Shown here: positions 3,212 to 63,985 of the stretch, in pieces
Layout: every line of letters begins with the position of its first letter
Numbering within the stretch: position 1 is the first letter of the stretch
Virus record (IMG/VR): IMGVR_UViG_3300032242_003148
Coordinates: 101,607-165,606 of that record
Source of the DNA: a virus
Length of the DNA: 64,000 nucleotides
Strand: one strand, 5' to 3'
Made by a program: the position numbers and the translations under genes
Notes under the pieces: model-generated
What the model was told of the DNA's origin: nothing
The model's database searches: none
What the model saw: the letters and a program-made list of their open reading frames with translations, nothing else

Positions 3212-3232
3212 ATTATTATATATCCTTGTTAA

Positions 3233-3721
3233 TTAGGCTGCGAGTAATTTGACACCGAGGAAAGCCTTAACAGCTCCTACAGTTGCACCTGTGCTAGTGT
3301 CAGGAAGGGTACGAATACCTTCAACCGTACCAATTAACTTGGCATTGGTGGATGTTGTGGACAACACACCAGCTGTGGTTGCGTAGAGACGCGTACCGAT
3401 AGGATAGTTTGTTGCATTGACTGCAGAATCTGTTGCGCTGCTGTCTACCTCGAGAACTGTGTCTCCGGAGACCAGATAGATACCAATGGATCCTGTTGCG
3501 ACTGCATCACCGTCACCGAGGCCGGTGGAAGTGCTGTAGGTATTTAATGAAAAGCCAACTAGGTCGTCTGCAGGGGAACCGGAAACACCTAAGGCGGCGG
3601 TACCATCTGTCTTGACGCGGACTACTTGGCCTGCGATTACTGACTGACTAGCGGCGAGCGTGGCAACCTTATCGGCTTGGCCTAAGCTCAGGGCTGGTCC
3701 TTTTTTGAAGTTAATAGCCAT
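3233..3721 (-). CDS. Capsid decoration/cement protein
   Basis: 162 aa from MAINFKKG (ATG 3721); Gly/Ala/Thr-rich beta protein directly upstream of capsid gene. Confidence 0.6.
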   Translation of the reverse strand: MAINFKKGPALSLGQADKVATLAASQSVIAGQVVRVKTDGTAALGVSGSPADDLVGFSLNTYSTSTGLGDGDAVATGSIGIYLVSGDTVLEVDSSATDSAVNATNYPIGTRLYATTAGVLSTTSTNAKLIGTVEGIRTLPDTSTGATVGAVKAFLGVKLLAA

Positions 3722-3830
3722 ATTTTTGTTTTTTGTTTGTTGTTGTTTGATTTTGGTTTTCGCTTCTGCGCCCTCATACCGGTACCGATCAAGGTAACAC
3801 AAGTCGCATTGCCGAAGTTTTGTATATTTA

Positions 3831-4414: not shown

Positions 4415-5320
4415 TTACTTAGCAGCTTCGGTCTTGAGGCGCTCGAGAACAATGTTAGCTACTGACTCAGCCAGCTTTGTTTGAAACTCAACTGACTCAG
4501 CGGCCTGCTTCTCTTGAGCTTCCTTGCTGAGAACAGACTCAGCAAACTGAGAAAGTTCTGCAACCTTTGCCTTTAGTGCTTCGTTCTCCTGGGCGGCTTC
4601 TTCAAAAGCGGCCTGCTTAACAATCTCCTCGAAATAAGCTGCACCTGCGGCCTCTGCCTGCTTTTCTGTATCTGCAACCTTTTCTGTTTCTAATTCTTGC
4701 GCGGCTTGAGCGATGAGCATGTCAAGATCACGGCGACCAGCTTCCTTCATAAGAGTAGCTTCGTCAGCAACTGTCTCAGACGCAGTCTTTAAAAGGGCTG
4801 CGCAGAATTGGCGACCAAGTTCATAGGAAGCAACCTTGCTGGCGAGTTCAGAAACTTCATCAGAGGCTTTCTTTGCTTCAGCGGCAGGCTCTGCACTATC
4901 TGAGCTAGGCTTTTGATCACCTGTGGTCTGGGGGGTATTCTTATCAGCACCAACTTCGTTCTTGTTAGTGGTCTCGTGTTCATCCTTAACTGACTCAGGC
5001 TTGTCTGTGGCTGGTTCGCCAGTAACTGCGTCTTGAGCGTCAGCATGCTTGCGGATGATGTCTAAAATTTCGTTACCAAGAGTTTCTGCTGTTTTAGCTG
5101 CAGGCTCTGCGGAATCCTTGGAGGGGGCTTGATGATAGCTCTGAGCGAGGTTATCAGCACCAACGTTGTTCTTATTGGTGGTCTCGTGCTCTTCTTTAAC
5201 AGCTTCAGGCTTCTGGGAAGCGGGTTCACCAGTGACTGACTTCTGTGCCTCTTCGGCTTGCTTCTTAACCAGCGAGTGAAGCTGATTTAATACTTCGGCG
5301 TGTTTTGTTAATTTGCCCAT
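4415..5320 (-). CDS. Putative prohead scaffold protein
   Basis: 301 aa acidic/Ala-rich coiled coil, internal ~60-aa duplication, 15 K-x-A sites; lies between protease and capsid genes. Confidence 0.65.
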   Translation of the reverse strand: MGKLTKHAEVLNQLHSLVKKQAEEAQKSVTGEPASQKPEAVKEEHETTNKNNVGADNLAQSYHQAPSKDSAEPAAKTAETLGNEILDIIRKHADAQDAVTGEPATDKPESVKDEHETTNKNEVGADKNTPQTTGDQKPSSDSAEPAAEAKKASDEVSELASKVASYELGRQFCAALLKTASETVADEATLMKEAGRRDLDMLIAQAAQELETEKVADTEKQAEAAGAAYFEEIVKQAAFEEAAQENEALKAKVAELSQFAESVLSKEAQEKQAAESVEFQTKLAESVANIVLERLKTEAAK

Positions 5321-5382: not shown

Positions 5383-6351
5383 TTAATCTTTACTTGCTCT
5401 GCCTGCTGCGATTCCTGTTCCACCAACGGCTGCGGCACCTAGACCTAGCGAGATTCCTTTGTGCTTACTAGCGAGTTCTTTTGCATCATCTTTGAACCCC
5501 TTTAGCGCAGTCTTACCTCTGGTGAGTACGTTTGTTACAGCTTCACCTGCAGCATTAGCGAGTCCTGCTTCTTTAACAATAGCAAGAGTCTGAGCATCAG
5601 AGAGACCGTATTCACGTGCGCGCTCTACAATACCTTCGTAGTATGCTGCGGTCTTTTCTTCTTTTTCAGCCTTGGCTTTACAAGCCGCGCAGGTTCCACC
5701 ACAGTCGCAAGCTTTTTCTTCCTTTTCAGCCTTTTTCTCTTCAGCTACGGGAGCCTTGTTCTCACGGATCTTCTTTAAATCGTCAGCATCAATTTTACCA
5801 TTGTGATTAACATCTAACTTTTTCTGTCCACCAATTAATTCACTCTGCTTGAGCTGATTGAATGTTGTGGTAAAAGCTGTGTCATAAAGTTCAACAGCCT
5901 GCTTGAGACCTAAACCACGACCCAGAGCCTGCTCTAAGAATCCCTCAACATAGTTAGCGGATTTAATAAAATTAATTGCGCTCTGTTTGGCTAAAGCGGC
6001 CTCATCAGCTCCTGGCTGAGGGGCTAATTGCTCTGCCACATCAGGGTGCTGTGAAAGCTGCTGCTCAATCCCGGCGGCAACCCCAGGAATCTGCTCAGCT
6101 TCTTCACCATGTTCTGCCCCGCCACCATGACCATGAGTAACTTCAGCAATAAGCTGTTCTAGCTCCTCAGGAGAAAGTTGTGAAAGAAGCTTTTCAATTT
6201 CTTCTTCATGCGGAGTTTCAGAAGCTTCATGTTCAGGTGTGCCCTCTGGGGCTCCACCGCCATGCTGAGGAAGAAGTGCTTCAATTTGCTCTTCGTTCAT
6301 TCCGGCTTCATTCGCGGCTTTGATAAAGCCAGTTAAAAAATGTTTATTCAT
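5383..6351 (-). CDS. Mosaic head/internal protein with EF-hand-like loop and Cys knuckle
   Basis: FLTGFIKAA leader; DVNHNGKIDADD; CDCGGTCAAC; Gly-rich hydrophobic C-terminus. Confidence 0.6.
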   Translation of the reverse strand: MNKHFLTGFIKAANEAGMNEEQIEALLPQHGGGAPEGTPEHEASETPHEEEIEKLLSQLSPEELEQLIAEVTHGHGGGAEHGEEAEQIPGVAAGIEQQLSQHPDVAEQLAPQPGADEAALAKQSAINFIKSANYVEGFLEQALGRGLGLKQAVELYDTAFTTTFNQLKQSELIGGQKKLDVNHNGKIDADDLKKIRENKAPVAEEKKAEKEEKACDCGGTCAACKAKAEKEEKTAAYYEGIVERAREYGLSDAQTLAIVKEAGLANAAGEAVTNVLTRGKTALKGFKDDAKELASKHKGISLGLGAAAVGGTGIAAGRASKD

Positions 6352-6413: not shown

Positions 6414-7844
6414 TTAACGATTCTGGATCAGAGCGTTTAAAATAGTTTGATCGTCTAATTTACCGCTCTCATCCATATATCTCAGAGCCGCTAATTTATA
6501 GCTCAAATATTGTTGAGCTAATTCATCTGCAGCTGCATCTTTTTCGATCTCTTTCTTGTTAGGGGAAGCTTTTAAATCGCCAGGAATTCTCTTGATGATT
6601 GTAATGCGCATAACCCTACCATGAGCAGGCTGATCAAATAAAGAATGCCCTTCAAACAGACGACTGACAAGTCCTTTTATTTCCTTGGGAATTATTCCTA
6701 AGTCTGAAGGATCAAATTTTTCATTGTTAACAGCTCCCGCCTCTGAGTCTTCGTCCTCTTCCATATGAGAGAATCCAGAAGGTAAACGCTTCTTCATCTT
6801 ATCAATAATCTTTTCATCTTTTAATTTATCTCCGAAAAGATATTTAACAAAGTCTGCTGGAGAAAAAACAATACCATGATCAGCTAGGGCCTTTAATAGC
6901 TTGCTAGGATCTTGTTTGCGGAGCTCATCAATTGTTTCATCTGAAATACCATCAGCATGGTTAATCTTTGATGCTTCATGAGCAACATATTTCTCAGTAG
7001 AATCTTTGGGTCCCTTTGTTGCTATTCCCTCAAGATGCTTCTCCATTTCAGCTAACTTACCAACAAGTGCACGCTTATCGCTCGCCTTTTTAGAAATAAG
7101 AAAGTCGTTAGCCTCTGAAGGAGCTCTAAAGTCAGAATAAATTTGAAGATAGTCTGATGTAAGTTTAGGTGCGTATTCAGAAGCTAACTTAAGAGACATT
7201 CCGATTCTATCAGCAGGACGCCCAACAATAGATAACTCAAACCAATGAGGGTCTACGTTATCCATGCCACACATTTCTCCACGCTTGTTTAATTCACCTA
7301 TCTGGCTAGGAACGTGTTCACAACGTCCACGATCATCTTTGGCTTCGTGTCCGCACCATGTACAAACATCGCTAGCAACCTTTGCGGCCATAGAAACGTT
7401 GATCTGCTTGCCTTCTGCTAACTTTTGAATTTCTTCTGCACACTTATCATTATCTAAACCAACGATAAGCTCTATTCTCTTCATCTCAGGATTGTACGCC
7501 GCGGCTTTGATATTTCCGTACTTAGGATCATGTGGTTTGTTCTTGTGGTGACGGTTTAATGCCCTGCCATCATACTTACCATCTTTACCCTTAGAACCTG
7601 ACTTAACGAATGTCTTATAGTGCTCTAAACATTCAGCTTCTTTAAAAAGATCACCATTGCGGTTCTGGCCAATACCCTCATAAGCGCCAAGAGCAATAAC
7701 ATGCACGTCTGTTTGATTTGCTGTTTTTTCAACACGCAGCTCATCCTGCACAGCGGCTAACTTCTTCAAGTCAGCTGGTTCATTAACTATGTTTACAGGA
7801 GGAACATCGTAGTTCCAATCTGAGGTAGAATTAAATTTAATCAT
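6414..7844 (-). CDS. Prohead maturation protease (HK97/assemblin-like) with Zn-binding insertion
   Basis: NRNGD, RHH, VSM, ELSIVGRPAD motifs; CTWC...CEH insertion; synteny. Confidence 0.75.
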   Translation of the reverse strand: MIKFNSTSDWNYDVPPVNIVNEPADLKKLAAVQDELRVEKTANQTDVHVIALGAYEGIGQNRNGDLFKEAECLEHYKTFVKSGSKGKDGKYDGRALNRHHKNKPHDPKYGNIKAAAYNPEMKRIELIVGLDNDKCAEEIQKLAEGKQINVSMAAKVASDVCTWCGHEAKDDRGRCEHVPSQIGELNKRGEMCGMDNVDPHWFELSIVGRPADRIGMSLKLASEYAPKLTSDYLQIYSDFRAPSEANDFLISKKASDKRALVGKLAEMEKHLEGIATKGPKDSTEKYVAHEASKINHADGISDETIDELRKQDPSKLLKALADHGIVFSPADFVKYLFGDKLKDEKIIDKMKKRLPSGFSHMEEDEDSEAGAVNNEKFDPSDLGIIPKEIKGLVSRLFEGHSLFDQPAHGRVMRITIIKRIPGDLKASPNKKEIEKDAAADELAQQYLSYKLAALRYMDESGKLDDQTILNALIQNR

Positions 7845-9134: not shown

Positions 9135-9695
9135 TTAGCTGTTTAAAAGATATTTATCTGCTTGTAGGGCACTACTAAGTCTCTCCACATTTCTGGGATC
9201 ATTTAATTTTTGAAAGTTGGTTACAGTTTTTTGCTTGGCCTCATAGGCGGGAACTCCTGCAAGCAATCCTCCTCCTATAGCTCCGGCTAAACCTAAGCCT
9301 TTTGGAAGTCTAGAACGAAGGGCATTTAAAATAGCTGATCTACCTGGTCCCTTTAATGCAGAACCTGCTAGATGCCCCGCAGCCCCGCCCACAAAAGCCC
9401 CGCCAACAGCCTTGCCTAACCCAGCGCTAATTCCTTGCTGTTGTGGATTTTCTCCTAAGGTGGAATTGCGGGTGTTTAAAATAGCTTGATTGTACTGTGC
9501 TGATGTTTGTCCTGTTGGGTCGTTGTAGCCCGGAGGAACGCCAGCTTCGCGTAGAGCTATGCGGATTCTAGCGATATCCTCGTCACTTAAATCGTCTGTA
9601 TATGCTTTTTTAATTAGCCCAAGTATCTCGTCTTCTGGTAAGCCTGAAATATTTGCGGCCTTTATAAAGCCAGTCATGAAGTTATTAGTATTCAT
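9135..9695 (-). CDS. Leader-bearing glycine-zipper protein
   Basis: Start MNTNNFMTGFIKAA...LIKKA (ATG 9695); two GxxxG helices. Confidence 0.6.
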   Translation of the reverse strand: MNTNNFMTGFIKAANISGLPEDEILGLIKKAYTDDLSDEDIARIRIALREAGVPPGYNDPTGQTSAQYNQAILNTRNSTLGENPQQQGISAGLGKAVGGAFVGGAAGHLAGSALKGPGRSAILNALRSRLPKGLGLAGAIGGGLLAGVPAYEAKQKTVTNFQKLNDPRNVERLSSALQADKYLLNS

Positions 9696-10101
9696 TATAT
9701 TGTTGTACTTGTTGCTGAGGTTGGGGGTTCTCACCACCGGCTAGTGCTGACCCAGCGGCGCCACCTAATCCAAAGCCTAGTGTTGAGCCTATTGCCTGCC
9801 CTGTTCTCATACCTGTTCCTGGGATGGGGGCTCTAAAAAATTTTAATAACTTAGTAGATAAACCTGCAGGTTCGGGGTGACCAGCTGCAAGAGCTGCGGC
9901 TCTACGAGTCTGTAATGTTTTACCAGCCATACGCAAAAGTGGACCTGTGGCTAATCGACTCAGTAATAAATCGCCACCTAGACCACCAATTATCGGAGCG
10001 AGTAGATTCAACCAGGCAGTTTTATCTAATCCGTGCTCAGCACACTTGTTCATATAGCCGCGAATAAATGCAGCCTTGATCTTAGGGTCTTCTAAGTTCA
10101 T
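9685..10101 (-). CDS. Leader-bearing glycine-zipper protein
   Basis: AFIRGYMNKCAEHGLDKTA leader followed by GxxxG helices. Confidence 0.6.
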   Translation of the reverse strand: MNLEDPKIKAAFIRGYMNKCAEHGLDKTAWLNLLAPIIGGLGGDLLLSRLATGPLLRMAGKTLQTRRAAALAAGHPEPAGLSTKLLKFFRAPIPGTGMRTGQAIGSTLGFGLGGAAGSALAGGENPQPQQQVQQYNEY

Positions 10102-10482: not shown

Positions 10483-11898
10483 TTAAAACTTTATACCTTC
10501 TAGGTTACCACGTAAATAGCTATCAGACACGATTTTTCTTTTCATCATGTCCATATCTAGTTTGGTGAGTTGATCTGCGTCGTGAGGTGCAATGGCCTGA
10601 GAAGCTACCGCTTGGCGAAGCATAGCACGAAGAACTTCTTTCTCTTTAGATACTTGCGGAGAAAGTCTAAGAATCTGCTCATAAGCTTTTACAACCTTTT
10701 GTGGATTAGCCCTTGAAAGAATAGGATCTGTGAGCATTAACTCTTGAAGGATTAGTTGCCTCTCCATGTTTTCCATGGTCATATTATGGGCATGGCTAGA
10801 TCCTCCTGGCTTTTTGCCTCCTCTGCTGGATAACTCCTCATAGAGTCTATGCTCACCCATAGCCTTGCCGGCACCGACTAAATTAGCTAAAGAAAACAAG
10901 CTAAGTGGACTAGCCTCTTTCTTTAGGGCTGCCTTTTTTTCTATCCTCTCTAAAATAGGATCTCTGCTCTCAGCTGTTTTCGTCGGTTTATTTTTTTTTT
11001 TAGCTACCACAATAGGGGCCTCTTCGGCTTGCTTGGATAGTGTTCCATTACCGGCAACCAGCTTTCCGATTTCAGAATAATACTCTTTTTCAAAAGTATA
11101 GTCAGCTTCGGCAGTTTTTAAGTTACCCTCAGCCTCACCTAATGCTGCTGCGGCTTTCATAAAATCATCATACATACCTAGTTCTGCAACTGGGGAGAAC
11201 ATATTGTATTTGCTGTCGTGCACTCCACGCTCTTCTTCTATACCTGCAGTCTTATAGATTAGGTCTAGATAAGGAACTGACGCTTCGCCATGCTTGCTGA
11301 ACACTTGAGATTCAAACTCCTCAAAAGATGTTCTATATCCTTCGTCACGGCGGAAATGAGCCGCCAGCTTTGAGAACTTTTTATTCAGATCTAACTCTGC
11401 ACCAACCTTTTCTGTTTTGCAGTTATCGAGATTCTGTTCTAAATCTCTTAAAAGCTTTGCGGCCTTGTCGAAAGCGCCTTTCATGGTTAAACCATAAGAA
11501 TCCTCTGTTGCGGTTGCTCCTGTGATTTCGAGATAAGCCTGCTTATATTTAGGGTTATTAAGGGCACGGTTAAAATTAAATACTTCATCATTTGATTCAG
11601 AAGTAGGAAAGTGCTCAGAAATATACTCGCTGGCTGTTTTTTCTGTTTTGTCGAAAATGCTGGAAATTGTTCCAGGGATATCAGCAATCGCAAACCCAGC
11701 AGAACGGTCTGACGCAGTTTTGAAGTGATTATAGTGGAGAGCAACATTCAGGGCCTCGCCAACACGATGGATATAATTAGGATTAAGATCCAGATCAGAG
11801 GCCACTTTCTTAAGGGCATCAGTAGGATTTGTTCCACTGTTAACTTTCTGCACTACCTCGGCTAATGCAATTTTTACGAGAGAATTCGGTTGTTCCAT
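10483..11898 (-). CDS. Helical putative virion protein rich in K-x-A sites
   Basis: 471 aa; KIA, KVA, KTA (several), KQA, KEA. Confidence 0.6.
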   Translation of the reverse strand: MEQPNSLVKIALAEVVQKVNSGTNPTDALKKVASDLDLNPNYIHRVGEALNVALHYNHFKTASDRSAGFAIADIPGTISSIFDKTEKTASEYISEHFPTSESNDEVFNFNRALNNPKYKQAYLEITGATATEDSYGLTMKGAFDKAAKLLRDLEQNLDNCKTEKVGAELDLNKKFSKLAAHFRRDEGYRTSFEEFESQVFSKHGEASVPYLDLIYKTAGIEEERGVHDSKYNMFSPVAELGMYDDFMKAAAALGEAEGNLKTAEADYTFEKEYYSEIGKLVAGNGTLSKQAEEAPIVVAKKKNKPTKTAESRDPILERIEKKAALKKEASPLSLFSLANLVGAGKAMGEHRLYEELSSRGGKKPGGSSHAHNMTMENMERQLILQELMLTDPILSRANPQKVVKAYEQILRLSPQVSKEKEVLRAMLRQAVASQAIAPHDADQLTKLDMDMMKRKIVSDSYLRGNLEGIKF

Positions 11899-16290: not shown

Positions 16291-18153
16291 CTATTCTTTG
16301 AAGTTACTATGCTCACCAAAACCAACGCCGTGAGCAAGCCCGGGAATAGGGCTTGGTCCCCTGATATCAGAAGTAGCGCCAGCGTTAACAGCATTGCTAA
16401 ATCTCTTTGCCAGGTTTGTGCTATACAATACATGCATAAAGTCATCTGCGTGCTCTGGTACGTCTAATAATCTTACCATATGGGGTTCAAAATGTGGAGG
16501 GTCGTCATGCACAACCACAGATTCTATACCATGCTCTGCCAAGTCTTGCATAACTGAAGATGTTACTCTAGTACCTATGGTATAATGTAACTCTGGTTTT
16601 TCCAAATACTTACCATAAGCTAAGTCTGATCTAACTGTTTTGCTACTTGCCCTGGGTACGTAATTTTTCTCTAGAGCTGAGTAAGAAACAATCTGGTCTG
16701 GTAGAAAATCGCCTAGTCCTTCGTTATCTGTTATCTTTACATGATCAATGGCAGATCTAGCAATAAGTTCAAAATTTCTTCTGTTAACCCCTAGGTTACC
16801 CTCATCAAAAGCCCGCTTCATAGCCTGCGCATAATAATTTCGACCCTCTCCAATTCCCTTGTATCTAACAACTTCACTAGGATCAATTAGCCCAGAGCTA
16901 AGCACATCTCCCTGCTCTACTTTATCACCAACCTTAACTTTAGGTTCTTGTCCGACACCTATATAGTATTCTGTATCTCCTATCTTTATAAAATATCCAC
17001 CAGCTGCGGCGTGTTGAACGCTAGACACAACCCCATCTTCTTGAGCTAGTGGTGCTTTGTTTAAAAAAGTTTTTGGGATGTTAGCTAGTTGGTTAATCAT
17101 TTTAAACCCTGACACGCCACCTAGAGAAGTAGCAGCTCCGCCGCCATGACGAAGTTTCATAGCATACTCTGTGAGGGGTTCACTAACTGCTGTACCAGCA
17201 ACCAGTCCAATATAACTATCAGGAGCGGCTAAACCTTTTTCTCTTCTCCCCACACACAGCTGACAAACTGCACCGAAGTGACTATTATTGCTGGCTCTGC
17301 ACGTCATGGGGGAACGGATTAAAATTTTGTTAATATTTTGTTCCTTTAAGTCATTCAACATTTTTGCGGTGATCTCATTATTCCTTTTATACCCGCCAAC
17401 AGGAGCAGCTAGAAAGGCCCCAACAGAATCTTTGTCTGTGGTGGGTACTGTAATCCCATTAGTAGTGCCGCAATCATGTTCTGTGATTTGTAAATTCATC
17501 AAGGCTCTAGAAAACTGTTTGGAAGAATATCCTCCCTGAGCCACACCAACCTTTTTAACAACTTCACCAGAACGAGTACCAAAAGATGTCACAAGATACT
17601 CAGGAAGAGAAAGTCCTTCAGCAAAAGAGCTTTTAACAGGAATATCCATTTTAGGATTTCCTTCTGCATCCACAACAATCCCCTGTGTTGCTATGGTAGA
17701 GCGATATTGTGCTGGTGATCCTCTAGAACCCGCCAAAATAATTTTAGCTAGTGACTTATTATTCTTAAGCCCCTCATCAAGAATGGTCTTGTTGGTCTCC
17801 TCCATCAAGGAGTTATATTTATCAAAAATTCTTTGATTTTTAACGCTTTCAGAATCTTTGGTTTTATGTACTTTCTCCTGAAACTCTTCGAATTTGTCGT
17901 AAAGCTCTTTTGTATTAATAGGAGAAACCAAATCTTTTAATGTAATAGATGTTCCTTGTCTAGTGGCAATCTCAAAACCTAAACGGGTAAGATCAGAGGC
18001 GATCTTGCTATAATTTTCTGGCTCTTGTTCTACTAGCTTACTAAACAGATTATTGATTCCTTTTTTATCAAGAACCTGACCATCTATCATGTGATGTAAG
18101 TGTTTAGGAGTATACTCTTTCAGAAGTATACGTCCTACAGTAGTAACGGACAT
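16291..18153 (-). CDS. rpoC: Phage multisubunit RNA polymerase, beta' C-terminal part
   Basis: GSRGS, bridge helix FAEGLSLPEY...GGY, EHDCGT, RSPMTC, VCQLCVG, trigger loop EPLTEYAMKLRHGGG. Confidence 0.92.
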   Translation of the reverse strand: MSVTTVGRILLKEYTPKHLHHMIDGQVLDKKGINNLFSKLVEQEPENYSKIASDLTRLGFEIATRQGTSITLKDLVSPINTKELYDKFEEFQEKVHKTKDSESVKNQRIFDKYNSLMEETNKTILDEGLKNNKSLAKIILAGSRGSPAQYRSTIATQGIVVDAEGNPKMDIPVKSSFAEGLSLPEYLVTSFGTRSGEVVKKVGVAQGGYSSKQFSRALMNLQITEHDCGTTNGITVPTTDKDSVGAFLAAPVGGYKRNNEITAKMLNDLKEQNINKILIRSPMTCRASNNSHFGAVCQLCVGRREKGLAAPDSYIGLVAGTAVSEPLTEYAMKLRHGGGAATSLGGVSGFKMINQLANIPKTFLNKAPLAQEDGVVSSVQHAAAGGYFIKIGDTEYYIGVGQEPKVKVGDKVEQGDVLSSGLIDPSEVVRYKGIGEGRNYYAQAMKRAFDEGNLGVNRRNFELIARSAIDHVKITDNEGLGDFLPDQIVSYSALEKNYVPRASSKTVRSDLAYGKYLEKPELHYTIGTRVTSSVMQDLAEHGIESVVVHDDPPHFEPHMVRLLDVPEHADDFMHVLYSTNLAKRFSNAVNAGATSDIRGPSPIPGLAHGVGFGEHSNFKE

Positions 18154-18491: not shown

Positions 18492-19091
18492 TTATTGCCC
18501 CGGAGCTGCGCCCATAGGGGCAGAATAAATTCCACCCTGCCCCATTGCGCTCTGTTGGGCTTGCTCTTGTTGGGCTTGACTCTGTTCTTGCTCTTGTTGC
18601 TTTTGCAGGGCTTCCATTTTCTTATTGTGGGTATCTGCTAACTGCTTAACCTTTAACAAGCTATGCGTTGCTTTGCCTCCGCTAGAGAGATCTAGGAGTT
18701 CACGAACAGAGAGAGTTACTTTTGTATTATCCAAGCTATTTTCTGCATTAACATTCCCCTCTGCTGGAGCTGGCTGGGCTTGCTGCTGCTCTTGAGCTTG
18801 TGGCTGCTGTGCTCCTGCTTGAGGTGCCGCGCCCCCTTGCTGTCCAACTTGTTGAATTTGCTGCGCCAATTGTTGCATGGCCTGCATCTGTTGGTCTGGT
18901 GGTAGCTGCTGTAGCTGTTGAAGCGCAGGTGCAATTTGTTGCTGGGCATCTTGAGGGAGCTGTTGAATCATTCCCATTAGCTGCTGTTGAGCCTGTTGGA
19001 GCTGCGCCTGTTCTTGCTGGGGCTGAGGATTAGGGATAAAAGCCTGTTTTACAAGGCTATCATATGATTGGATAAGTTCGGCGATATTCAT
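18492..19091 (-). CDS. Glutamine-rich protein with LVKQA leader
   Basis: 199 aa, long poly-Q/QA tracts. Confidence 0.65.
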   Translation of the reverse strand: MNIAELIQSYDSLVKQAFIPNPQPQQEQAQLQQAQQQLMGMIQQLPQDAQQQIAPALQQLQQLPPDQQMQAMQQLAQQIQQVGQQGGAAPQAGAQQPQAQEQQQAQPAPAEGNVNAENSLDNTKVTLSVRELLDLSSGGKATHSLLKVKQLADTHNKKMEALQKQQEQEQSQAQQEQAQQSAMGQGGIYSAPMGAAPGQ

Positions 19092-19318: not shown

Positions 19319-22306
19319 TTAAGATATGTCAACATTATCTCCTATGTCCAGCTTTCCTGCCATAAAATCAGCAACTACTTGAGAGTCACTAGAGTAATGT
19401 ATTGGTTTGTTGTGTTTATCCTCATAGCTAGCGGCAAACAATCCTACAGCTGCTTCGTTTGAAGGTGTATAGATAGGGCTGAACGTTCTGTGATAAATAA
19501 GGTTTTTCTCCGGGAATAGCTTTTCTTTGACTTCCTCTTTAGCTGCATCACCGGCAGGTACTTGAACATTGAGCTGGTCTCCGTCGGAGTCTGCACCATA
19601 TCCTTTGAATACCAATGGGTTTAATTTAATAGAGAAGTCTTTGGGGTCAGGATTAGCCCTTAAGTAAAACCCTTGGAAGTTATATTTAGACAACTGGGGA
19701 TCACGAGTAACAATACCAGGACGATCTTTTAGCTCCTCTTGCAGGGCTAATGACGCTAGTGGGTGTTTGCTCTTAACATAGTCTCTGGCTTTGGTGGCGG
19801 GTACCCCTTGTCTCACTAGTCTGCGAATAATAAACGGAGTATAGATATTCCATAGAATAGTCTGAGGAATAGCTGCCTCATTCAACTGCAGATTTCCATC
19901 TGGTACAAGTACACCTCTTCCTACAAGATCAATTGGCTTGTTAACTACTTTGGCCTGGAACATAGAGCTCTTTGCGCTACCCCCTTGTGTGCCTAGCGTT
20001 GTGGCGAGCAGACCTTTGAAATGCTTTTCTTTGCTTCTTGTGCTGATTGGTTCGCCTAACCCATAGATGGCTCTAACTCCCTCGTATAACTTTTTACGAG
20101 CTTCACCTTTTAGCTCTTCAGGAGTGTGTTCGTCTATGCCTTTGAACGACCTGTTCACCAACATGAGATCTTTATATAATTCATTAACATCCGCGCTCAT
20201 GATCTGATTACCCTGTGCGGTAATTGGTCGGTATTGCGCAGGTATAACAGGAACTTTAGATAGCAATAAATCTTTGGGGTGAAGATTCTCCCTCTTTAGC
20301 ATTGTTAGGAAAGCTAATACTTTAACTGCAGAGTCTCTATCTGTTTTTCTGTTAGATTTAATATACCCTTTTAGCTCTGCTATCTTGTCATCTAACTTAA
20401 TACCTTTGAGTGCTTTTTCTAATTCGCCGTTAGATAACATTTCCTCAAACTTAGCTTTTGTTGTGCCTAATAGTTTACGCAACGGCTCTTCACTAATAGG
20501 ATTAGGTACTTTCATTGCTAGCTCTATGTGATTGTAGTTATCTCCGTAAATACCTACATTAACAGGGTCAAAAAGCCCGCTATTCTCTGCAACTAATTCT
20601 CCGTTCTTAAGCTTGTATGTGAGCGGTTCATGAATTTCGCCGTGACTAAGCATCTCTATATCTTTGTCTGTTTGAGGAAGAATATTAAACTTTGTGCCCT
20701 CTTGATTAACATGCACACCAGATCCCTCTAGGTGAGAAATAAACTTATTAAATATAAACGGAACTTTCGGAGGTGGCGGAGTATAACCTAGCTTGATTGC
20801 GTTCCAGAATTCATCGTTCTTTGTGCTTCTAACCACAGCCACATCTTTTAAAACTTCCTTGGCGTCATTAGACAGAGCTACCGTGGTTGCAAGGTTTCCT
20901 AAGCGCTTGCTCTTTTCAACAGTGCCGGCCTTAGAGGGCTGCATGTTAATATCGTATGTAGTACCTGCGGATCTAGATGATATTTTGTCTTCTGCAATGT
21001 GATGTAATCTTGTGTAATATGACGGACCTGTGAAAACTTCTATGTGCTTGCCAGAGATAGGATCATAGAGTTTTTCGGTATCTTTGATCCCGTGTTTTTC
21101 TAATTCTTTGATTGTGTTCTCTACAACACTACCATTTGCAAAAGGAGTAGTTTTAATGTTGTGACCTAACTTCTGAGCAACTTTGCCCATAGCCATTGTG
21201 GTGATAAGTCCAGGAGCAACGCGGCTAGTAACACTCATAGAGTTGAGCAGCACATCAATAGGTTTACCATCTTCTCCTTGAGGCATCTCGCTATTGCTAA
21301 CAATTCTAACCACACCTTTTGCGCCGAAAGGGTTAGAGAGTTTATCTCCCTGGGCCATTGTTCTTCTTGTCTTAATTGTAACAGTAATAAGTTTACTAGT
21401 ATGACTAACATCCACTACTTCACCATCATGCTCGTATTCCCAAGTATGTGTGATATCTGAGTAAGCATTTTTAAGTGCTCTAGAAAGTTTACCCAGTTGA
21501 ATTTCTAATGACTTTAGCGTTTTAGGTTGATACGCAAGAATCAACGGATCTCCATGGCTAACAATGCTGCCTCTTTTAATTGTTCCAGAACTATCTAACT
21601 TACTAAGCTGGTCGTTGAAATATTTGTTTGGGAACAATGAAACATATTTGTCTTTGTCTGTTTCTATTCCTCTAGCAATTTCTAATCTAACAGGCACAAG
21701 TTGCTCTGCTTCTAATTTTTGAGCGGCTGCTTCGCTAATAACAAGAGCATCTTCGAAATTATAAGAGCGATATGGCATCACGGCGGTTTTAAGATTCATA
21801 CCTAGTGCCATATTGCCATGAGCGTCAGAATAATTAGATGTGGCTAATAATCCCTCTTTTTTAACAGTGTCTCCTACTTTAACTGTAGGAATATGATGCA
21901 TATAACTTTCACGTCCCACCAGATAATGTTGATATAGTGGGTGCTCGTGGTCTTTACCAGAACTATCCTTAACCACAATCTTGTCAGGATCTACCTTGGT
22001 TACTTTTCCATCTGAAAAACTGTGAAGGCTAACTAGTTTATGTCCGAACTCCTCTATAAAGCTCTTGTGATCCTGGCTCTCGCTAGACTGAACTAATGGA
22101 GCTTCTCTGTTAACCAGAGTCATAGCCTGAAGTGAGCTCTTATCACCGATTAATACACGGGCACCTGATACACTACTCAGGCTGGGAATAAGATTAGTAA
22201 CAGGGGAGAAGAAATCCGTGGTGCTCGGAATCTTATAATCTACTTTGGTTGACTTAGGGACTTTTTTGAGTTTTCCGTGGTCCAACACGAATTTGTACTC
22301 TTTCAT
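19319..22306 (-). CDS. rpoB/rpoC: Phage RNA polymerase catalytic subunit: beta C-terminal half fused to beta' N-terminal half
   Basis: beta motifs SYNFEDA, GDKLSNPFGAKG, DVLLNSMSVTSRV, LHHIAEDKISSRS followed in frame by beta' motifs GLFDP, HIEL, VPVIPAQYRP, RDPQL, GADSDGDQ. Confidence 0.93.
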   Translation of the reverse strand: MKEYKFVLDHGKLKKVPKSTKVDYKIPSTTDFFSPVTNLIPSLSSVSGARVLIGDKSSLQAMTLVNREAPLVQSSESQDHKSFIEEFGHKLVSLHSFSDGKVTKVDPDKIVVKDSSGKDHEHPLYQHYLVGRESYMHHIPTVKVGDTVKKEGLLATSNYSDAHGNMALGMNLKTAVMPYRSYNFEDALVISEAAAQKLEAEQLVPVRLEIARGIETDKDKYVSLFPNKYFNDQLSKLDSSGTIKRGSIVSHGDPLILAYQPKTLKSLEIQLGKLSRALKNAYSDITHTWEYEHDGEVVDVSHTSKLITVTIKTRRTMAQGDKLSNPFGAKGVVRIVSNSEMPQGEDGKPIDVLLNSMSVTSRVAPGLITTMAMGKVAQKLGHNIKTTPFANGSVVENTIKELEKHGIKDTEKLYDPISGKHIEVFTGPSYYTRLHHIAEDKISSRSAGTTYDINMQPSKAGTVEKSKRLGNLATTVALSNDAKEVLKDVAVVRSTKNDEFWNAIKLGYTPPPPKVPFIFNKFISHLEGSGVHVNQEGTKFNILPQTDKDIEMLSHGEIHEPLTYKLKNGELVAENSGLFDPVNVGIYGDNYNHIELAMKVPNPISEEPLRKLLGTTKAKFEEMLSNGELEKALKGIKLDDKIAELKGYIKSNRKTDRDSAVKVLAFLTMLKRENLHPKDLLLSKVPVIPAQYRPITAQGNQIMSADVNELYKDLMLVNRSFKGIDEHTPEELKGEARKKLYEGVRAIYGLGEPISTRSKEKHFKGLLATTLGTQGGSAKSSMFQAKVVNKPIDLVGRGVLVPDGNLQLNEAAIPQTILWNIYTPFIIRRLVRQGVPATKARDYVKSKHPLASLALQEELKDRPGIVTRDPQLSKYNFQGFYLRANPDPKDFSIKLNPLVFKGYGADSDGDQLNVQVPAGDAAKEEVKEKLFPEKNLIYHRTFSPIYTPSNEAAVGLFAASYEDKHNKPIHYSSDSQVVADFMAGKLDIGDNVDIS

Positions 22307-22359: not shown

Positions 22360-22791
22360 TTAATAGCTTATCTTGCCGCCCTTGAAATTAGGGTCTGGAA
22401 CATAAGTATTATTAAGGTGCTGATTGTTTTGATGTCTGCTTTCAGCCAGGGAAGGACCACTAAAGAGATCAAGGCCTGTATTATGGGCGGCGCTATTTAA
22501 CATACCACCAACGTTAGTCTTAAAGTTTTGAAAACCAGTTCCGATAGCGTTACCAATATTATGTGCTGTGTTACCGAGTGCGTGACCCGCAGCCCCAATA
22601 CCATTACCCACAGATTGCAGGCCTTTAGTTATGGTGTCGTCTTCACCTAAGGGCAAGTGGTTGTACTTGGATGCTGATATTTCTGAATTTAAGGGAATTG
22701 TGGCCTGCTTTAAAATCTCGATAGCTTCATTCTTGCTAACTCCATAGTCAGCTGCTCTTTTTAGGAATCCATTAATAAATGCTTCGTTCAT
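22360..22791 (-). CDS. Leader-cassette paralog 3
   Basis: MNEAFINGFLKRAADYGVSKNEAIEILKQA + cargo. Confidence 0.75.
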   Translation of the reverse strand: MNEAFINGFLKRAADYGVSKNEAIEILKQATIPLNSEISASKYNHLPLGEDDTITKGLQSVGNGIGAAGHALGNTAHNIGNAIGTGFQNFKTNVGGMLNSAAHNTGLDLFSGPSLAESRHQNNQHLNNTYVPDPNFKGGKISY

Positions 22792-23150
22792 AAGTTTTTC
22801 TTTTTTTCTTCTTCTGTTTTTCGTTTCTGCTTTCTTTTTTCTCCAAGGTTTTCTCTAAGCACGTGATCAGCTTTATACTTACGACCAATGTGATAACCGG
22901 TATATCCGGGAATAAGGAGCCCCTTACCAAGTCCATAAGGTGTGCGGTGTACTTCTTCAGCCTCATCTTCATCCATGTCATTATATCTACCAATAAGTGC
23001 ACCTATAGCAGAAGGAACTCCAAGATTACCAATATCATACATAGGTCCAATGATGGCCTGCTTCTCTAAAATCTCGATAGCTTCAGCTTCGCTAACTCCA
23101 TAGTCAGCTGCTCTTTTTACAAATCCATTAATAAATGCTTGTTCGCTCAT
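22788..23150 (-). CDS. Leader-cassette paralog 2
   Basis: MSEQAFINGFVKRAADYGVSEAEAIEILEKQA + unrelated cargo. Confidence 0.75.
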   Translation of the reverse strand: MSEQAFINGFVKRAADYGVSEAEAIEILEKQAIIGPMYDIGNLGVPSAIGALIGRYNDMDEDEAEEVHRTPYGLGKGLLIPGYTGYHIGRKYKADHVLRENLGEKRKQKRKTEEEKKKNL

Positions 23151-23161
23151 ATAGTTATTTG

Positions 23162-23191
23162 TTATTTCTGCTTTAGTACGTCTTCGTTCAT
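23162..23191 (-). pseudogene. Collapsed leader-cassette remnant (MNEDVLKQK*)
   Basis: Same upstream AAATAACTAT as gene at 23150 and same ATGAACGAAG start as genes at 22791 and 23698. Confidence 0.5.
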
Positions 23192-23224
23192 ATAGTTATT
23201 TCTATACCCTGCTCAGTGCTTTAT

Positions 23225-23698
23225 CTAGGGAGTGATATCTGTATTATGGGCGGCACTATTTAAAGCACCGCCGACATTATCGTTACGCTTTTGAAAATAA
23301 TCTCCAACAGTGTTACCAATATTACGTGCTTTGTCAGCAACAAAGTTATTAATTTCACGCCCTACGGCTGGTATGGCGTGTGATGTGCCAGCTAAAGTGG
23401 CGCCTGCGCCCCACAGGGCTGGAATACCGGTGTTGCGGATTGATTGACCGACCGACGGTGGCGTCAATCCGCTAGTTAAAGGGCTAGCAACTCCACGTTC
23501 AGCACCTAGACCAGCACGAAGGCTAGCGCCAAGGCCAGGGAATGCTTTGTTTGCTATGTTACCCACTCTACCTAAACCGCCTAATATAGGACCGATGGGG
23601 GCTGCGGACTTTTCATTCAAAATACTAATTGCTTCATTCTCACTAACTCCATAGTCCGCTGCTCTTTTTAAGAATCCGTTTATAAAGGCTTCGTTCAT
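23225..23698 (-). CDS. Leader-cassette paralog 1
   Basis: MNEAFINGFLKRAADYGVSENEAISILNEKSA + Gly-rich cargo. Confidence 0.75.
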   Translation of the reverse strand: MNEAFINGFLKRAADYGVSENEAISILNEKSAAPIGPILGGLGRVGNIANKAFPGLGASLRAGLGAERGVASPLTSGLTPPSVGQSIRNTGIPALWGAGATLAGTSHAIPAVGREINNFVADKARNIGNTVGDYFQKRNDNVGGALNSAAHNTDITP

Positions 23699-23729: not shown

Positions 23730-24056
23730 TTAACTTTCCCCCTCTTCGTCAAGATTTTCTGGATTATCAACAAATCTCAAACCACATCTCCAGAGCACAT
23801 GGGCAAGGTCATCGCTAATCTCGTCCACCACATCATTGTCCAACTCCCAAATAGCGCAATGTATTAGTTCATCTAATAGGGTAGCCAACATCTCCTTTGG
23901 TGTTTGGTTAGGGTCAACAACTACACTCTTACCCTTTGTTGCAGGGTTGTCTGTTCTGCCCCTATTCTGAGTTTCAGTTATCAGATTAGGGGTTAATGAA
24001 AATTTATACCTCCTACCTCTCACGGTAATAGAGTGAATGTTCTCTAGCTGCTTCAT
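23730..24056 (-). CDS. Small zincin-like protein with degenerate DELIH motif
   Basis: TLLDELIHCA...DEISD resembles TLLHExxHA phage metallopeptidase-like proteins. Confidence 0.55.
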   Translation of the reverse strand: MKQLENIHSITVRGRRYKFSLTPNLITETQNRGRTDNPATKGKSVVVDPNQTPKEMLATLLDELIHCAIWELDNDVVDEISDDLAHVLWRCGLRFVDNPENLDEEGES

Positions 24057-29533: not shown

Positions 29534-29735
29534 ACAAATCTATATCCCGTCTTTAAAAATAAAAGGAACATACCTGGAAGAAATCGGCGGAGGAACTGAC
29601 AAAGTTATGTACCCAGGTAAGACTATAGAGGTTGAGTTAGGCGCAGAAGATTTCTTATCAGAAGAGGACTACCATAGTGCATGGATCCTTATCACAAAGG
29701 CAGTTCAAAAGAAACTAACAGATGGAGCCGCCTAA
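29523..29735 (+). CDS. Small hypothetical protein
   Basis: Start MHAKQIYIP (ATG 29523), 70 aa. Confidence 0.5.
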   Translation: MHAKQIYIPSLKIKGTYLEEIGGGTDKVMYPGKTIEVELGAEDFLSEEDYHSAWILITKAVQKKLTDGAA

Positions 29736-30375
29736 AAACACCAGAGCTTTCTTTGATCCTCACCAGTTAAACAAGCTTATTCAAAAGCATGTACTGGATG
29801 GGTTTAAATCCAAGCTAGGGCTGATAGAGACCAACGACCACAAGCTAGAGGTTGATAACTTAGAGCTGCACCCGAAGAATTTCTCAATAGAAGAGCAGAA
29901 GAGTGCTGTGCTTGAGAAAAGAGATCTTACGTATCCTATAAAAGGAGATATACATCTGGTGGATAAGAAAACCGGAGGTAGGATAGAATCAAAGCATATC
30001 ACTATAGCCAATATTCCTTTTGTAACAGATAGAAACACAGTTATTTACAACGGCAGCGAATACGAACCTATTCATCAGCAGAGATTATTGCCAGGGGTAT
30101 ATTCAAGGATTCGTCAGAGCGGCGAGGCCGAAGCCCATATCAACCCAGCACCTAGAACAGGCATGGGCGGTAGAATATTATTCTTTCCTGACAAACAGTT
30201 ATTTGTGCTTATGATTCAAAACACCCAGATCAAGCTATATGGAGTAATGCATGACTTAGGTATACCTGATAGCCAGATGCAAAATAGCTGGGGAGAAGAA
30301 ATCTACCTGGCAAATAAAAGAATGTATACAGGCGATGAGATAGACAAACTCTACAACAAAATATTTTTAGGATAA
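29722..30375 (+). CDS. rpoB: Phage RNA polymerase, beta N-terminal fragment
   Basis: LTYPIKG...IANIPFVTDRNTVIYNGSEY...QQRLLPGVY matches beta GEIPLMTDNGTFVINGTE...QLHRSPGVF. Confidence 0.85.
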   Translation: MEPPKNTRAFFDPHQLNKLIQKHVLDGFKSKLGLIETNDHKLEVDNLELHPKNFSIEEQKSAVLEKRDLTYPIKGDIHLVDKKTGGRIESKHITIANIPFVTDRNTVIYNGSEYEPIHQQRLLPGVYSRIRQSGEAEAHINPAPRTGMGGRILFFPDKQLFVLMIQNTQIKLYGVMHDLGIPDSQMQNSWGEEIYLANKRMYTGDEIDKLYNKIFLG

Positions 30376-32221: not shown

Positions 32222-33943
32222 ATGTCAAATCTAAGTATCAATCCCTCCACAGTAGAGCTGGGTCCACAGTATACTGTGCAATATCAGCCTGGATATTATG
32301 CAAGTAGAGATATTGTTGTGCACACCACAGCTATTGGTACAGTTGGTAGTACGTCTCTGATAGTAGATAATGCTTCTAATCTATCTAGAGGAGACCTGGT
32401 AGAGGCTTACGGAATACCAGAACAGACTAATATATCAAATATCTCTGGCACTACAATAACTCTTAGCAGCGCGATAACACAAACAATACCTATAGGCACT
32501 GCGCTATATATAGGGTCAATCTCAAAACCATCAAGCTGCATACTTCCTTCTGCTATATCCCCAAGCCTAGACCTAGGTTCTCCTATAGCTCCTATAGATC
32601 TCAGCTGTCATTATGCTTTTCCGCAAGTATATCTAACTCCCCCCATTTATAATGCTCCACAAACATTTGTGGCTTGTGAAGATTTTACAGCTTCTGTGGA
32701 CATTAGCCTACGAAATGCCATAACAGGGAATATAACGGCCACACCCACAAGTTCTCCACATTGTGGATTAGCCATCACAGGTCTTTTAGACGTAAACACC
32801 TGTGCCAATTTTACAGCCACGTCAAATATAACCTTTTCAGGTGCGGCACAAAACAGCTCATTAAAATTAACTGCAAGAGGACAACCGGATTGTGGTGTAG
32901 ACATTAAAGGTAATATAGATGTGCAAGCCTGCTCGGCATTTACATCTACTGTTAAATTTGATGTACCCGACGCTATGGCCGGCTCGGTTTTTTCTGTAAC
33001 TCCTAAAGGCCCATCTGACTGTGGGTTAGACCTAGACCTAGCCCTAAAATTAAATTTAAATGCGTGTGAAAAAATAACACCTATTATTAATTTTACATTT
33101 CCAGAAGCAATGGCTGGATCTACAGCTGTTTTTACTGCATCTCAAAACCCCCCTGACTGTCCTATTGAACTAGACCTTAACTTGGCACTAAACGCATGTA
33201 CAACATTCACTGCCGGCGGGGGAATAAGTGTTGGTGGTGGTGGCGCTAGCGGGTTTATTGGAGTTAGGGCGAACAAACCGCCAGATTGTGGCGTTTTTCT
33301 TGCTGGAAATATAAATGTACCAGCTGCGTGTACAGGGATTACCGTGGGTGGTAATGTGGGTATATCGGGCGCCGCGCAAGGCAGCATTACGTTAACGCCA
33401 TCTGGAGGCCCACCAGGTTGTGGGGTGCAGCTTGGCGGGAATATACATGTTAACTGCCCAACCGCTAACAGCTCCTTTCGTCCTGCTGGGGCAGCATGTA
33501 CTGGCGCAATCAGACTTGTCAGCACCGGAGGAGGGAACGCATGCGGAATTGACCTACAGGGTGACTTAAAAATACAAGCCTGTACTAAATTTTCAATAGA
33601 TACCAGTGCGTATCAATTTTTACATCTAGCGGCCATACGTAAACCAACATTTGCTATAACACAAATGGGTTCGGCAGATGATAGCGGTCAATGTAATCTG
33701 AAGTTAACAGGAACAATGGATATTCCATGCCCATCAATTCTGCCCTCCGAAATCAACTGGGGCGGGATAGTTAATAGCGCAGCCACAACGTTTAATATAG
33801 TTGTAGACCCCGTGAACTGCAATCAGTTTAAATTAAAAGGAAATGTAGCATTTGATGGGGCATGGACAAACGTAACAATTTGTAACAATGGAGTAACGTC
33901 AACTATGCAAGTTTGGGCCAGGGCCCTATCAACCACAAATTAA
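32222..33943 (+). CDS. Cys-periodic repeat protein, possible fibre/appendage
   Basis: About nine ~43-aa repeats AC..F...PDCG..L.G.I. Confidence 0.65.
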   Translation: MSNLSINPSTVELGPQYTVQYQPGYYASRDIVVHTTAIGTVGSTSLIVDNASNLSRGDLVEAYGIPEQTNISNISGTTITLSSAITQTIPIGTALYIGSISKPSSCILPSAISPSLDLGSPIAPIDLSCHYAFPQVYLTPPIYNAPQTFVACEDFTASVDISLRNAITGNITATPTSSPHCGLAITGLLDVNTCANFTATSNITFSGAAQNSSLKLTARGQPDCGVDIKGNIDVQACSAFTSTVKFDVPDAMAGSVFSVTPKGPSDCGLDLDLALKLNLNACEKITPIINFTFPEAMAGSTAVFTASQNPPDCPIELDLNLALNACTTFTAGGGISVGGGGASGFIGVRANKPPDCGVFLAGNINVPAACTGITVGGNVGISGAAQGSITLTPSGGPPGCGVQLGGNIHVNCPTANSSFRPAGAACTGAIRLVSTGGGNACGIDLQGDLKIQACTKFSIDTSAYQFLHLAAIRKPTFAITQMGSADDSGQCNLKLTGTMDIPCPSILPSEINWGGIVNSAATTFNIVVDPVNCNQFKLKGNVAFDGAWTNVTICNNGVTSTMQVWARALSTTN

Positions 33944-34632
33944 CTCTCAGGAATCTCTACCACAGAATCCAAAAAAGTTTGATGGTCTATCCATATTTTT
34001 TTACCATGACCGTCCTCTACTAAGCGGTATAACTTTCCATCATCACCTTTTCTACAGTTTTTTACAAAGAAGTTTACAACACCTATTGTTTCAGCTTCTA
34101 CAGTTTGTATAGGATCCATTAATCCGAACTGGCTCTCGTTAACACTTCTAGAGCTATCAGGAATACTCTCAGTACTTCCTATACCGCCCTCTCCCATCTT
34201 ACTCACCTTGTGGGCAAGCATATATTGCTCCATAGGGTTAACTCCCTCAATATTTTGACTAAGCGCATTACCAACAAACACGCTTTTGATTTGCGGTGTA
34301 AAGAACCCACTGTGGAGCCAGGATAGATTTCTTTTCTGTCTGAGCTTCATCTTAGCCTTCATTTGAATTTTTCCAGCATCATGTTCAATGTGCTCTTTAA
34401 CATAGTCCTCGGCTCCCAAGAATTTTGAGTACGCCAGGTTATCACGATCATCAGGACTAATCTCACGGCTATGCACCTTGAGTAGTTTTCCAGTGGTTTG
34501 CAATAACACCTGAGGGCTCACGTGATTAACACTCATTCCTAGAGTCTTGCCCATAACACCGATGTCTAATCGAATGTTGCCAAAGTACTCTTTAATCTTC
34601 TGAATTTTTTCTGCTTTAGAGGTGGTATCCAT
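33940..34632 (-). CDS. rpoB: Phage RNA polymerase, beta middle fragment (fork/Rif region)
   Basis: DDRDNL; LSQNIEGVNPMEQ...KVSKMGEGG; SVNESQFGLMDPIQTVEAETIG match beta DDIDHL / [12 protein letters not shown] / CPIETPEGPNIG. Confidence 0.88.
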   Translation of the reverse strand: MDTTSKAEKIQKIKEYFGNIRLDIGVMGKTLGMSVNHVSPQVLLQTTGKLLKVHSREISPDDRDNLAYSKFLGAEDYVKEHIEHDAGKIQMKAKMKLRQKRNLSWLHSGFFTPQIKSVFVGNALSQNIEGVNPMEQYMLAHKVSKMGEGGIGSTESIPDSSRSVNESQFGLMDPIQTVEAETIGVVNFFVKNCRKGDDGKLYRLVEDGHGKKIWIDHQTFLDSVVEIPES

Positions 34633-63700: not shown

Positions 63701-63985
63701 TTAACTGCAGTTCCACTTTCTCAGCGCTAAAGCTTTACGTGTAGGTTTTCCATGCTCATCTTTCATAGGCCCCTTTACACCGCCCATACGTGCACAGAAT
63801 GAAGCTTTTCTACCTTTTGCTTCACCCTTAGGATTCTTCTGAGTAACAGGAGCTTTTAGATGGCTGCCTGTCTCACGGTTATATTTATCTCTGCCGTGTT
63901 GAGTTAATCCACCTGATGGATTCTTATCTTCTTTGTGCATAACAACATTAGCCTTTGCTAACTTGTTCAATGCCTCTATATACAT
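63701..63985 (-). CDS. DUF6321-like basic phage protein
   Basis: GGLT..GR..YNRETGS.LKAPV...R.ASFCARM...ALRKWNC, preceded by LNKLA. Confidence 0.75.
   Translation of the reverse strand: MYIEALNKLAKANVVMHKEDKNPSGGLTQHGRDKYNRETGSHLKAPVTQKNPKGEAKGRKASFCARMGGVKGPMKDEHGKPTRKALALRKWNCS

Follow-up and report, generated by a model that had tools for sequence, protein, structure and literature searches.

The consensus of the T4 protease gp21 is (L/I)-x-E, and herpesvirus assemblin sites read V/L/I-x-A↓S. In P22-type phages, the scaffolding protein bears a C-terminal helix-loop-helix domain that binds the coat and is not cut off. T4 carries a capsid targeting sequence (CTS) on its diverse internal proteins IPI–IPIII, from which it is removed by gp21 (PMC3012670, citing Mullaney and Black 1996). 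The N-terminal 30 residues of P1 DarB are sufficient for capsid targeting (PMC9024508), and ejection proteins with N-terminal propeptides have been described in SPN3US (gp245; motif A-x-E; PMC10052503). The locus compared with these systems here belongs to an uncultured phage, and the window, that is the whole stretch of DNA analysed, is the final 64 kb of its 165.6-kb IMG/VR record, IMGVR_UViG_3300032242_003148. Its closest cultured relative is Salmonella phage Arash, with an RNA polymerase that is 32% identical. The features discussed below are collected in Table 1.

Table 1. Features of the window, in window positions
Feature	Position	Strand	Remarks
Major capsid protein	2255–3211	minus	30% identity to Arash gp226; N-terminal EKIA|D and EKQA|AVS, two conserved K-x-A
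Scaffold-like acidic protein	4415–5320	minus	15 K-x-A versus 5.4 expected
Head-module protein, 322 aa	5383–6351	minus	Three leader copies; E 2e-17 overall
Prohead protease	6414–7844	minus	Residues 15–209 have the T4 gp21/herpesvirus assemblin fold
Leader + glycine-zipper cargo	9135–9695	minus	E 1e-5; orthologous cargo in L014
Diverged leader (AAFIRGYMNKCAEHGLDK...) + Gly-rich cargo	9685–10101	minus	E 1e-4
Head-module protein	10483–11898	minus	16 K-x-A versus 4.7 expected
Fused RNA polymerase beta-C/beta'-N gene	19319–22306	minus	Downstream border of the slot; Pfam Rpb2_6, Rpb1_1/2
p1	22360–22791	minus	143 aa; leader codons 1–30 (~22702–22791), Gly/Asn-rich 113-aa cargo
p2	22788–23150	minus	120 aa; leader codons 1–32 (~23055–23150)
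Vestigial leader start AACTATATGAACGAAG	23182–23197	minus	p3–p2 spacer; start context as in p1 and p3
p3	23225–23698	minus	157 aa; leader codons 1–32 (~23603–23698), Gly-rich 125-aa cargo
Conserved 108-aa gene	23730–24056	minus	Upstream border of the slot; 64–97% identity in six related loci
DUF6321 protein	63701–63985	minus	Short start MYIEALNKLAKA only

A leader module on exchangeable cargoes

The products of p1, p2 and p3 have a common start of 30–32 residues, M(N/S)E(Q)AFINGF(L/V)KRAADYGVS..EAI.IL..K(Q/S)A. As the original prediction had it, the first ~90 nt of these tandem genes are near-identical and the similarity is gone directly past K-x-A; the later reconvergence of p1 and p3 was also found, in a C-terminal block (residues 109–155) that is 53% identical (E 1e-7). 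The p2 cargo includes a Gly-rich stretch that is hydrophobic and has a basic tail, and the p3 cargo is predicted to be disordered (AF2). Orthologues of p1 (P0003–P0005) and p2 (P0006–P0008) are present in relatives. The vestigial leader copy AACTATATGAACGAAG is dead, its frame closing after 9 codons. A promoter and terminator scan of the locus gave counts no higher than the shuffle level, and megablast of the locus returned no match.

To identify leader copies across the genome, an independent HMM was built from leader segments, 100 in all, that came from unrelated proteins of metagenomes, with no sequence of this genome among them, and was run against 2383 six-frame segments covering the whole genome. 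The leaders of p1, p2 and p3 scored E 1e-15 to 1e-18, and their resemblance is therefore not due to chance. Exactly seven proteins scored, all encoded in the structural gene block, with the seventh lying outside the window, just upstream (genome 97580–97831, E 2e-6). Degenerate leaders had been proposed for five further proteins, and three of these, starting at 5383, 9135 and 9685, were recovered by the HMM, whereas those at 26360 and 29003 were not (E > 10) and share only an F..GF-like turn and then K-x-A. The three copies in the 5383–6351 protein lie at residues 1–30, ~133–160 and ~236–263, with K-x-[A/S] ahead of the internal ones, and the real start of the 9135 protein is probably the ATG at 9695. 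Short leaders had also been proposed at 1916, 18492, 63099 and 63701. All have K-x-A within their first 8–21 residues, which is a weak signal for the first three because 56 of the 199 proteins of the genome have K-x-A within the first ~47 residues; 63701 is the exception, as its DUF6321 cargo carries a full leader in the related L014.

The leader also proved portable, since relatives carry it on new cargoes in one and the same slot, bordered on one side by the 108-aa gene and on the other by the RNA polymerase gene. Across six related loci this slot holds 1–3 cassettes of at least six cargo types, and its flanking genes are 64–99% identical. In the window it contains p3, p2 and p1, and in L006 a p2-type gene, a new type (P0009) and a p1-type gene. 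A lone p2-type gene is found in L012 and L013 (polymerase 99% identical). L023 and L024 have one cassette each, different from these and from one another, and L014 has three others, including leader + DUF6321 and an N-terminal extension + leader + 9135-type cargo. Two traits of the T4 type are thus seen here, namely one N-terminal peptide on unrelated cargoes, as with the CTS, and a cargo locus that is hypervariable among close relatives, as with the internal proteins.

Arrays of four or five consecutive leader genes were found in phage contigs L017, L019, L021 and L022, where HNH genes and DUF3008/DUF5661 modules are interspersed among them and collagen-like tail fibre genes follow immediately downstream. 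Neither K-x-A enrichment nor a protease was visible in the stretch analysed of three of these (L017, L021 and L022, contigs of 20–35 kb). In the four contigs the leader is freely combined with short modules, namely DUF3008 (SKAQQRLMGMALAAKRGK...), DUF5661, DUF6321 and a loop of EF-hand-like type, often with K-x-A in between, and the HNH endonuclease genes are inserted within the arrays. Planctomycete-type DUF1501 and PSCyt/PSD1 genes share contigs with phage structural genes (L017:194–4526; L022:561–1838 and 3190–3786); their presence could reflect a set of auxiliary genes, the edge of a prophage or a chimeric assembly.

When 1.84 billion representatives were searched with a profile of 13 leaders, 389 clusters at 50% identity matched it (E ≤ 1e-3). 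Among 146 retrieved proteins with a domain match, the leader (consensus MNTQQQAYINGFVKRAAEYGLNQNEAIELLKQA) is N-terminal in 125 and internal or C-terminal in 21, and K-x-[A/S] forms the junction in 109 of 124 N-terminal cases. BLAST grouping placed 123 cargoes in 79 unrelated groups. These reach up to 800 aa and are Gly/Ala/Pro-rich; most lack a Pfam domain, a few have DUF6321, MazG, ATP-grasp or EF-hand-like loops, and one combines HExxH and ATP-grasp domains. A nearly invariant K11-x-A13 (K11-R-A13) lies inside the leader itself. In the AF2 model of p3 (overall pLDDT 42), the leader hairpin alone is moderately predicted (pLDDT ~63), with a helix at residues 3–15, a turn and a helix at 20–32. 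The leader is thus probably a folded, conserved two-helix module (helix, G-V/L-S turn, helix), as judged from the model. The short, T4-like peptide that had been envisaged gives way to such a module, sometimes internal or repeated and with its own K11-R-A13.

Pfam and PHROG scans of p1–p3 and their neighbours returned nothing for the leader, and the leader of 123 family members is covered by no Pfam family. A PDB sequence search with the leader found no natural relative, the best match (E 0.03) being to designed helical-hairpin repeat proteins. An ESM Atlas look-up with p1 gave nothing usable, and tblastn of p3 and a consensus-type leader protein (P0034) found no leader in 50,697 cultured-phage records. 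A pattern search for related loci in viral contigs, among which near relatives may be missing, gave 262 pattern matches, of which 0 were confirmed, and a full-text literature search for the leader strings found them in none of the papers covered. Current family databases lack this large and well-defined protein module, and that holds even should the address function discussed below prove wrong.

Over 24 core codons, p1 and p3 differ by 9 synonymous and 2 replacement changes. This excess of synonymous changes means that selection keeps the peptide itself; the leader peptide is under purifying selection. Recent duplication or gene conversion was considered as the sole origin of the shared 90 nt and was rejected for p3 because it differs from p1 and p2 by 9–10 synonymous changes. 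The leader DNA of p1 and p2 is near-identical (1 synonymous and 3 replacement differences), and for this pair a recent copy or gene conversion is plausible.

The head module, its protease and the K-x-A motif

The head block was mapped by comparison with Arash and contains a prohead protease of the gp21 family, which is a further T4-type trait. The 6414–7844 product matches Arash gp222 and PHROG 18299, "head maturation protease" (E 3e-8). In a structure search, its AF2 model (pLDDT 72) aligned with T4 gp21 (5jbl_A) over 140 residues (Z 9.6, rmsd 3.3 Å), followed by the proteases of VZV (Z 6.3) and HCMV (Z 4.4). Foldseek of the same model against the PDB returned nothing at E ≤ 0.001, with gp21 as the top row. 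An alignment of 31 sequences shows no variation at H99, H100 and S151, which are candidates for a catalytic His/Ser pair. At residues ~159–192 the protease has a conserved Cys/His cluster (C161, C164, C175, H177 and C192) that is absent from T4 gp21 and is probably a zinc-binding insert.

The most abundant proteins of Arash virions include both RNA polymerase subunits, with the homologue of the fused polymerase gene (19319–22306) the most abundant of all (PMC10585845), and this phage group therefore packs its polymerase. In the window, at least four genes, located on one strand or the other, share the multisubunit polymerase between them (16291–18153, 19319–22306, 29722–30375 and 33940–34632), one of them the beta-C/beta'-N fusion, and the set is collinear with the single Arash genes gp206 and gp216. 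Between the two large polymerase genes, positions 18492–19091 encode a 199-aa glutamine-rich low-complexity protein starting MNIAELIQSYDSLVKQA. Elsewhere in the window, an S8 subtilase-like gene (61840–63096; Pfam E 3e-11) adjoins a weakly Zn-peptidase-like gene (60115–61788), and the pair sits beside the DUF6321 gene and the 63099 gene. The products of this pair could be alternative processing enzymes.

All 400 X-x-Y patterns were scanned against shuffled proteins in the 21-protein head block and in the other 173 proteins. K-x-A ranked first of 400 in the head block (85 observed versus 45.6 expected, z 6.7) and 193rd of 400 in the other proteins (196 versus 196.5 expected); its usual form is K-x-A-(S/E/A/G). 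In addition to the two enriched proteins listed in Table 1, the prohead protease contains 13 K-x-A (4.7 expected). The enrichment recurs in head-protein orthologues of a 293-kb relative and in two head proteins of Arash, and the L020 orthologue of the scaffold-like protein has 18 K-x-A (5.4 expected). The two N-terminal sites of the capsid protein keep K and A without exception in 120 orthologues, whereas x and the residues on either side are variable, and the Arash capsid protein has VKEA at the position matching the conserved K-x-A. In the protease family, K-x-A is conserved ahead of the catalytic domain, directly past it (SLKLA|S) and farther on. On these sequence patterns, K-x-A behaves like a protease code, and its enrichment could in part reflect the helical repeat composition of scaffold proteins.

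Two proteins encoded outside the window are also rich in the motif. One, of 350 aa (genome 56946–57998; L016:947–1999), has 14 K-x-A versus 2.5 expected (z 8.1); it is encoded far from the head block, has no PHROG match and may be a further protease substrate. The other, of 204 aa (genome 23582–24196), owes its inflated K-x-A count to eight KYREANKEKIAE-like repeats in tandem, and it is unrelated to the head signal.

Possible roles of the leader

Our best reading, to which we give a little less than an even chance, is that the leader serves as an address tag and that the prohead protease cuts it off at K-x-A. The same peptide stands on hundreds of unrelated proteins from further uncultured phages and is therefore probably a removable tag for head-loaded proteins. 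It would be the portable pro-sequence of accessory head or ejection proteins and would hold its cargo in the core of the assembling prohead, with the same module repeated on the head-module protein adjoining the protease. The gp21-fold protease would cut past the Ala of K-x-A at the leader–cargo junction and probably a second time, at K11-x-A13 within the leader. Cargo freed inside the head would then be delivered together with the virion RNA polymerase and the DNA. Conservation of the leader's coding sequence would also permit cargo swaps by recombination, which would explain why the slot changes between near-identical phages. Counting against this reading are the strong conservation across lineages, the 21 of 146 proteins whose leader is internal or C-terminal, the arrays of L017, L021 and L022 beside tail fibre genes, the reported coverage of Arash gp223, the possible contribution of scaffold repeat composition to the K-x-A excess, and the two other peptidase-like genes of the window. 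The modular tag of the original prediction is partly supported, by its portability, by the selection on the leader, by the head-specific K-x-A and by the gp21-fold protease; packaging, cleavage and the address role itself are what we infer from these. A complex predicted between leader residues 1–40 and the capsid protein (alignment A5) scored 0.01 against a mark of 0.32, a result that neither favours nor disfavours binding.

A two-helix hairpin might instead be retained as a docking or oligomerization domain that links a variety of small proteins with one another or with a shared virion component, with K-x-A serving as a helix cap only. Such a domain would suit a leader that is strongly conserved across distant phages, occurs repeated and internally, is modelled as a hairpin by AF2 and finds its best PDB sequence matches in idealized designed helical-hairpin repeats. 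Conservation across lineages far better than that of known targeting peptides could, from the sequences, indicate either a retained domain or a host partner. Arash gp223, which has leader-like repeats, is listed at ~100% coverage in the virion proteome table (PMC10585845), and if reliable this argues against removal of the leader; the table gives coverage only, with no N-termini, and its figures look unreliable, e.g. 100% from 2 peptides. We nonetheless consider a retained domain unlikely, given the placing of K-x-A. Lys stands at −3 upstream of the leader specifically where another module precedes it: 24 of 33 internal copies have K-x-[A/S] no more than nine residues ahead of them, as compared with 14% of random nine-residue windows. 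The motif is also specific to the head block and conserved amid varying residues, and Pro/Gly-rich, linker-like sequence usually comes next past the junction. Another reading is a pro-sequence that has no address role, acting either as a handle that recruits the protease or as a cap that keeps Gly-rich, possibly membrane-active cargoes inert until maturation, with packaging dependent on something else. Two K-x-A per leader (the invariant K11-x-A13 and the junction), Gly/Ala/Pro-rich cargoes predicted to be disordered and conserved K-x-A sites in the protease itself would all accord with this. MazG, ATP-grasp, DUF6321 and EF-hand-like cargoes are, however, too diverse for a single masking role, and the leader is also present on head-module proteins adjoining the scaffold, so that a pro-sequence of this kind also appears unlikely.

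Least of all do we expect the leader to act outside the virion, be it as a leader of RiPP or bacteriocin type that the S8 subtilase or a different peptidase takes off, or as the cytoplasmic N-terminus of small lysis or exclusion membrane proteins. The architecture of a leader with a variable Gly-rich core, the hypervariable slot, the cargo with HExxH and ATP-grasp domains and the S8 subtilase (61840–63096) and Zn-peptidase-like genes in the window would be in keeping with such roles. Every copy nevertheless lies within structural gene blocks, no modification enzymes or exporters were found beside the arrays, and the S8 peptidase gene is 38 kb from the leader cassettes. In place of RiPP-type gene clustering, the neighbours of the leader genes are structural genes, RNA polymerase, HNH and tail fibre genes. 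Cargoes of up to 800 aa, N-termini that by inspection are unlike signal peptides or TM segments, and the same K-x-A on the capsid protein, scaffold and prohead protease further oppose a non-virion role, which we judge very improbable.

The address-tag reading can be extended to a joint proposal, which we regard as tentative and, taken as a whole, rather doubtful: that a folded helix-turn-helix address of ~30 residues, bracketed by K-x-A cuts, is used by many uncultured phages of various types and allows any protein to enter the head once fused to it; that gp21-fold proteases read this grammar with a herpesvirus-like preference for Ala before the cut; and that the slot by the virion RNA polymerase stores injected host-takeover or counter-defence proteins. 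If the address-tag reading is true, the leader HMM and the K-x-A rule would mark the injected-protein repertoire of a large set of uncultured 165–290-kb phages and some smaller ones, flagging hundreds of candidate delivered effectors that today are without annotation. It would also add a new cleavage specificity to the gp21/assemblin protease fold and provide a small, conserved tag with which proteins could be loaded into phage heads, like the laboratory signals from T4 and P1.

Comparison with known systems

The leader is most readily compared with the T4 CTS. Both are N-terminal peptides common to unrelated, fast-evolving accessory proteins and end at a motif over-represented in scaffold or core proteins, and in both cases the head module includes the gene of a gp21-fold protease and the locus is plastic between close relatives. 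Unlike the CTS of ~10 residues, the leader has ~30 residues with a predicted helix-turn-helix, also occurs internally and repeated, and extends over hundreds of clusters and several phage types. Nor does it end in the (L/I)-x-E of T4, as the junction is K-x-[A/S] in 109 of 124 cases, with Ala before the putative cut. From its distribution, we infer that K-x-A may be the consensus of the local protease.

P1 DarB resembles the leader proteins in its N-terminal signal of ~30 residues and in being a head-packed protein that is delivered to the host, but the DarB signal is known from one protein rather than a multi-cargo family and has no known common cut motif, and no sequence similarity to the leader was found. 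SPN3US and phiKZ-like giant phages likewise have a virion RNA polymerase, and many of their head proteins have N-terminal propeptides that end at a three-residue motif of a protease that also cleaves itself. In contrast to the leader, these propeptides form no single conserved portable module, and their cut follows Glu. K-x-A differs from the motifs of T4 and the giant phages in having Ala instead of Glu, and in this it recalls the herpesvirus assemblin sites; to our knowledge, a preference for Ala before the cut is undescribed for phage prohead proteases. The coat-binding domain of the P22 scaffolding protein is, like the hairpin predicted here, small and helical, and it ties its protein to the procapsid interior; in comparison, the leader is also found on the head-module protein encoded between the protease and the scaffold-like gene.
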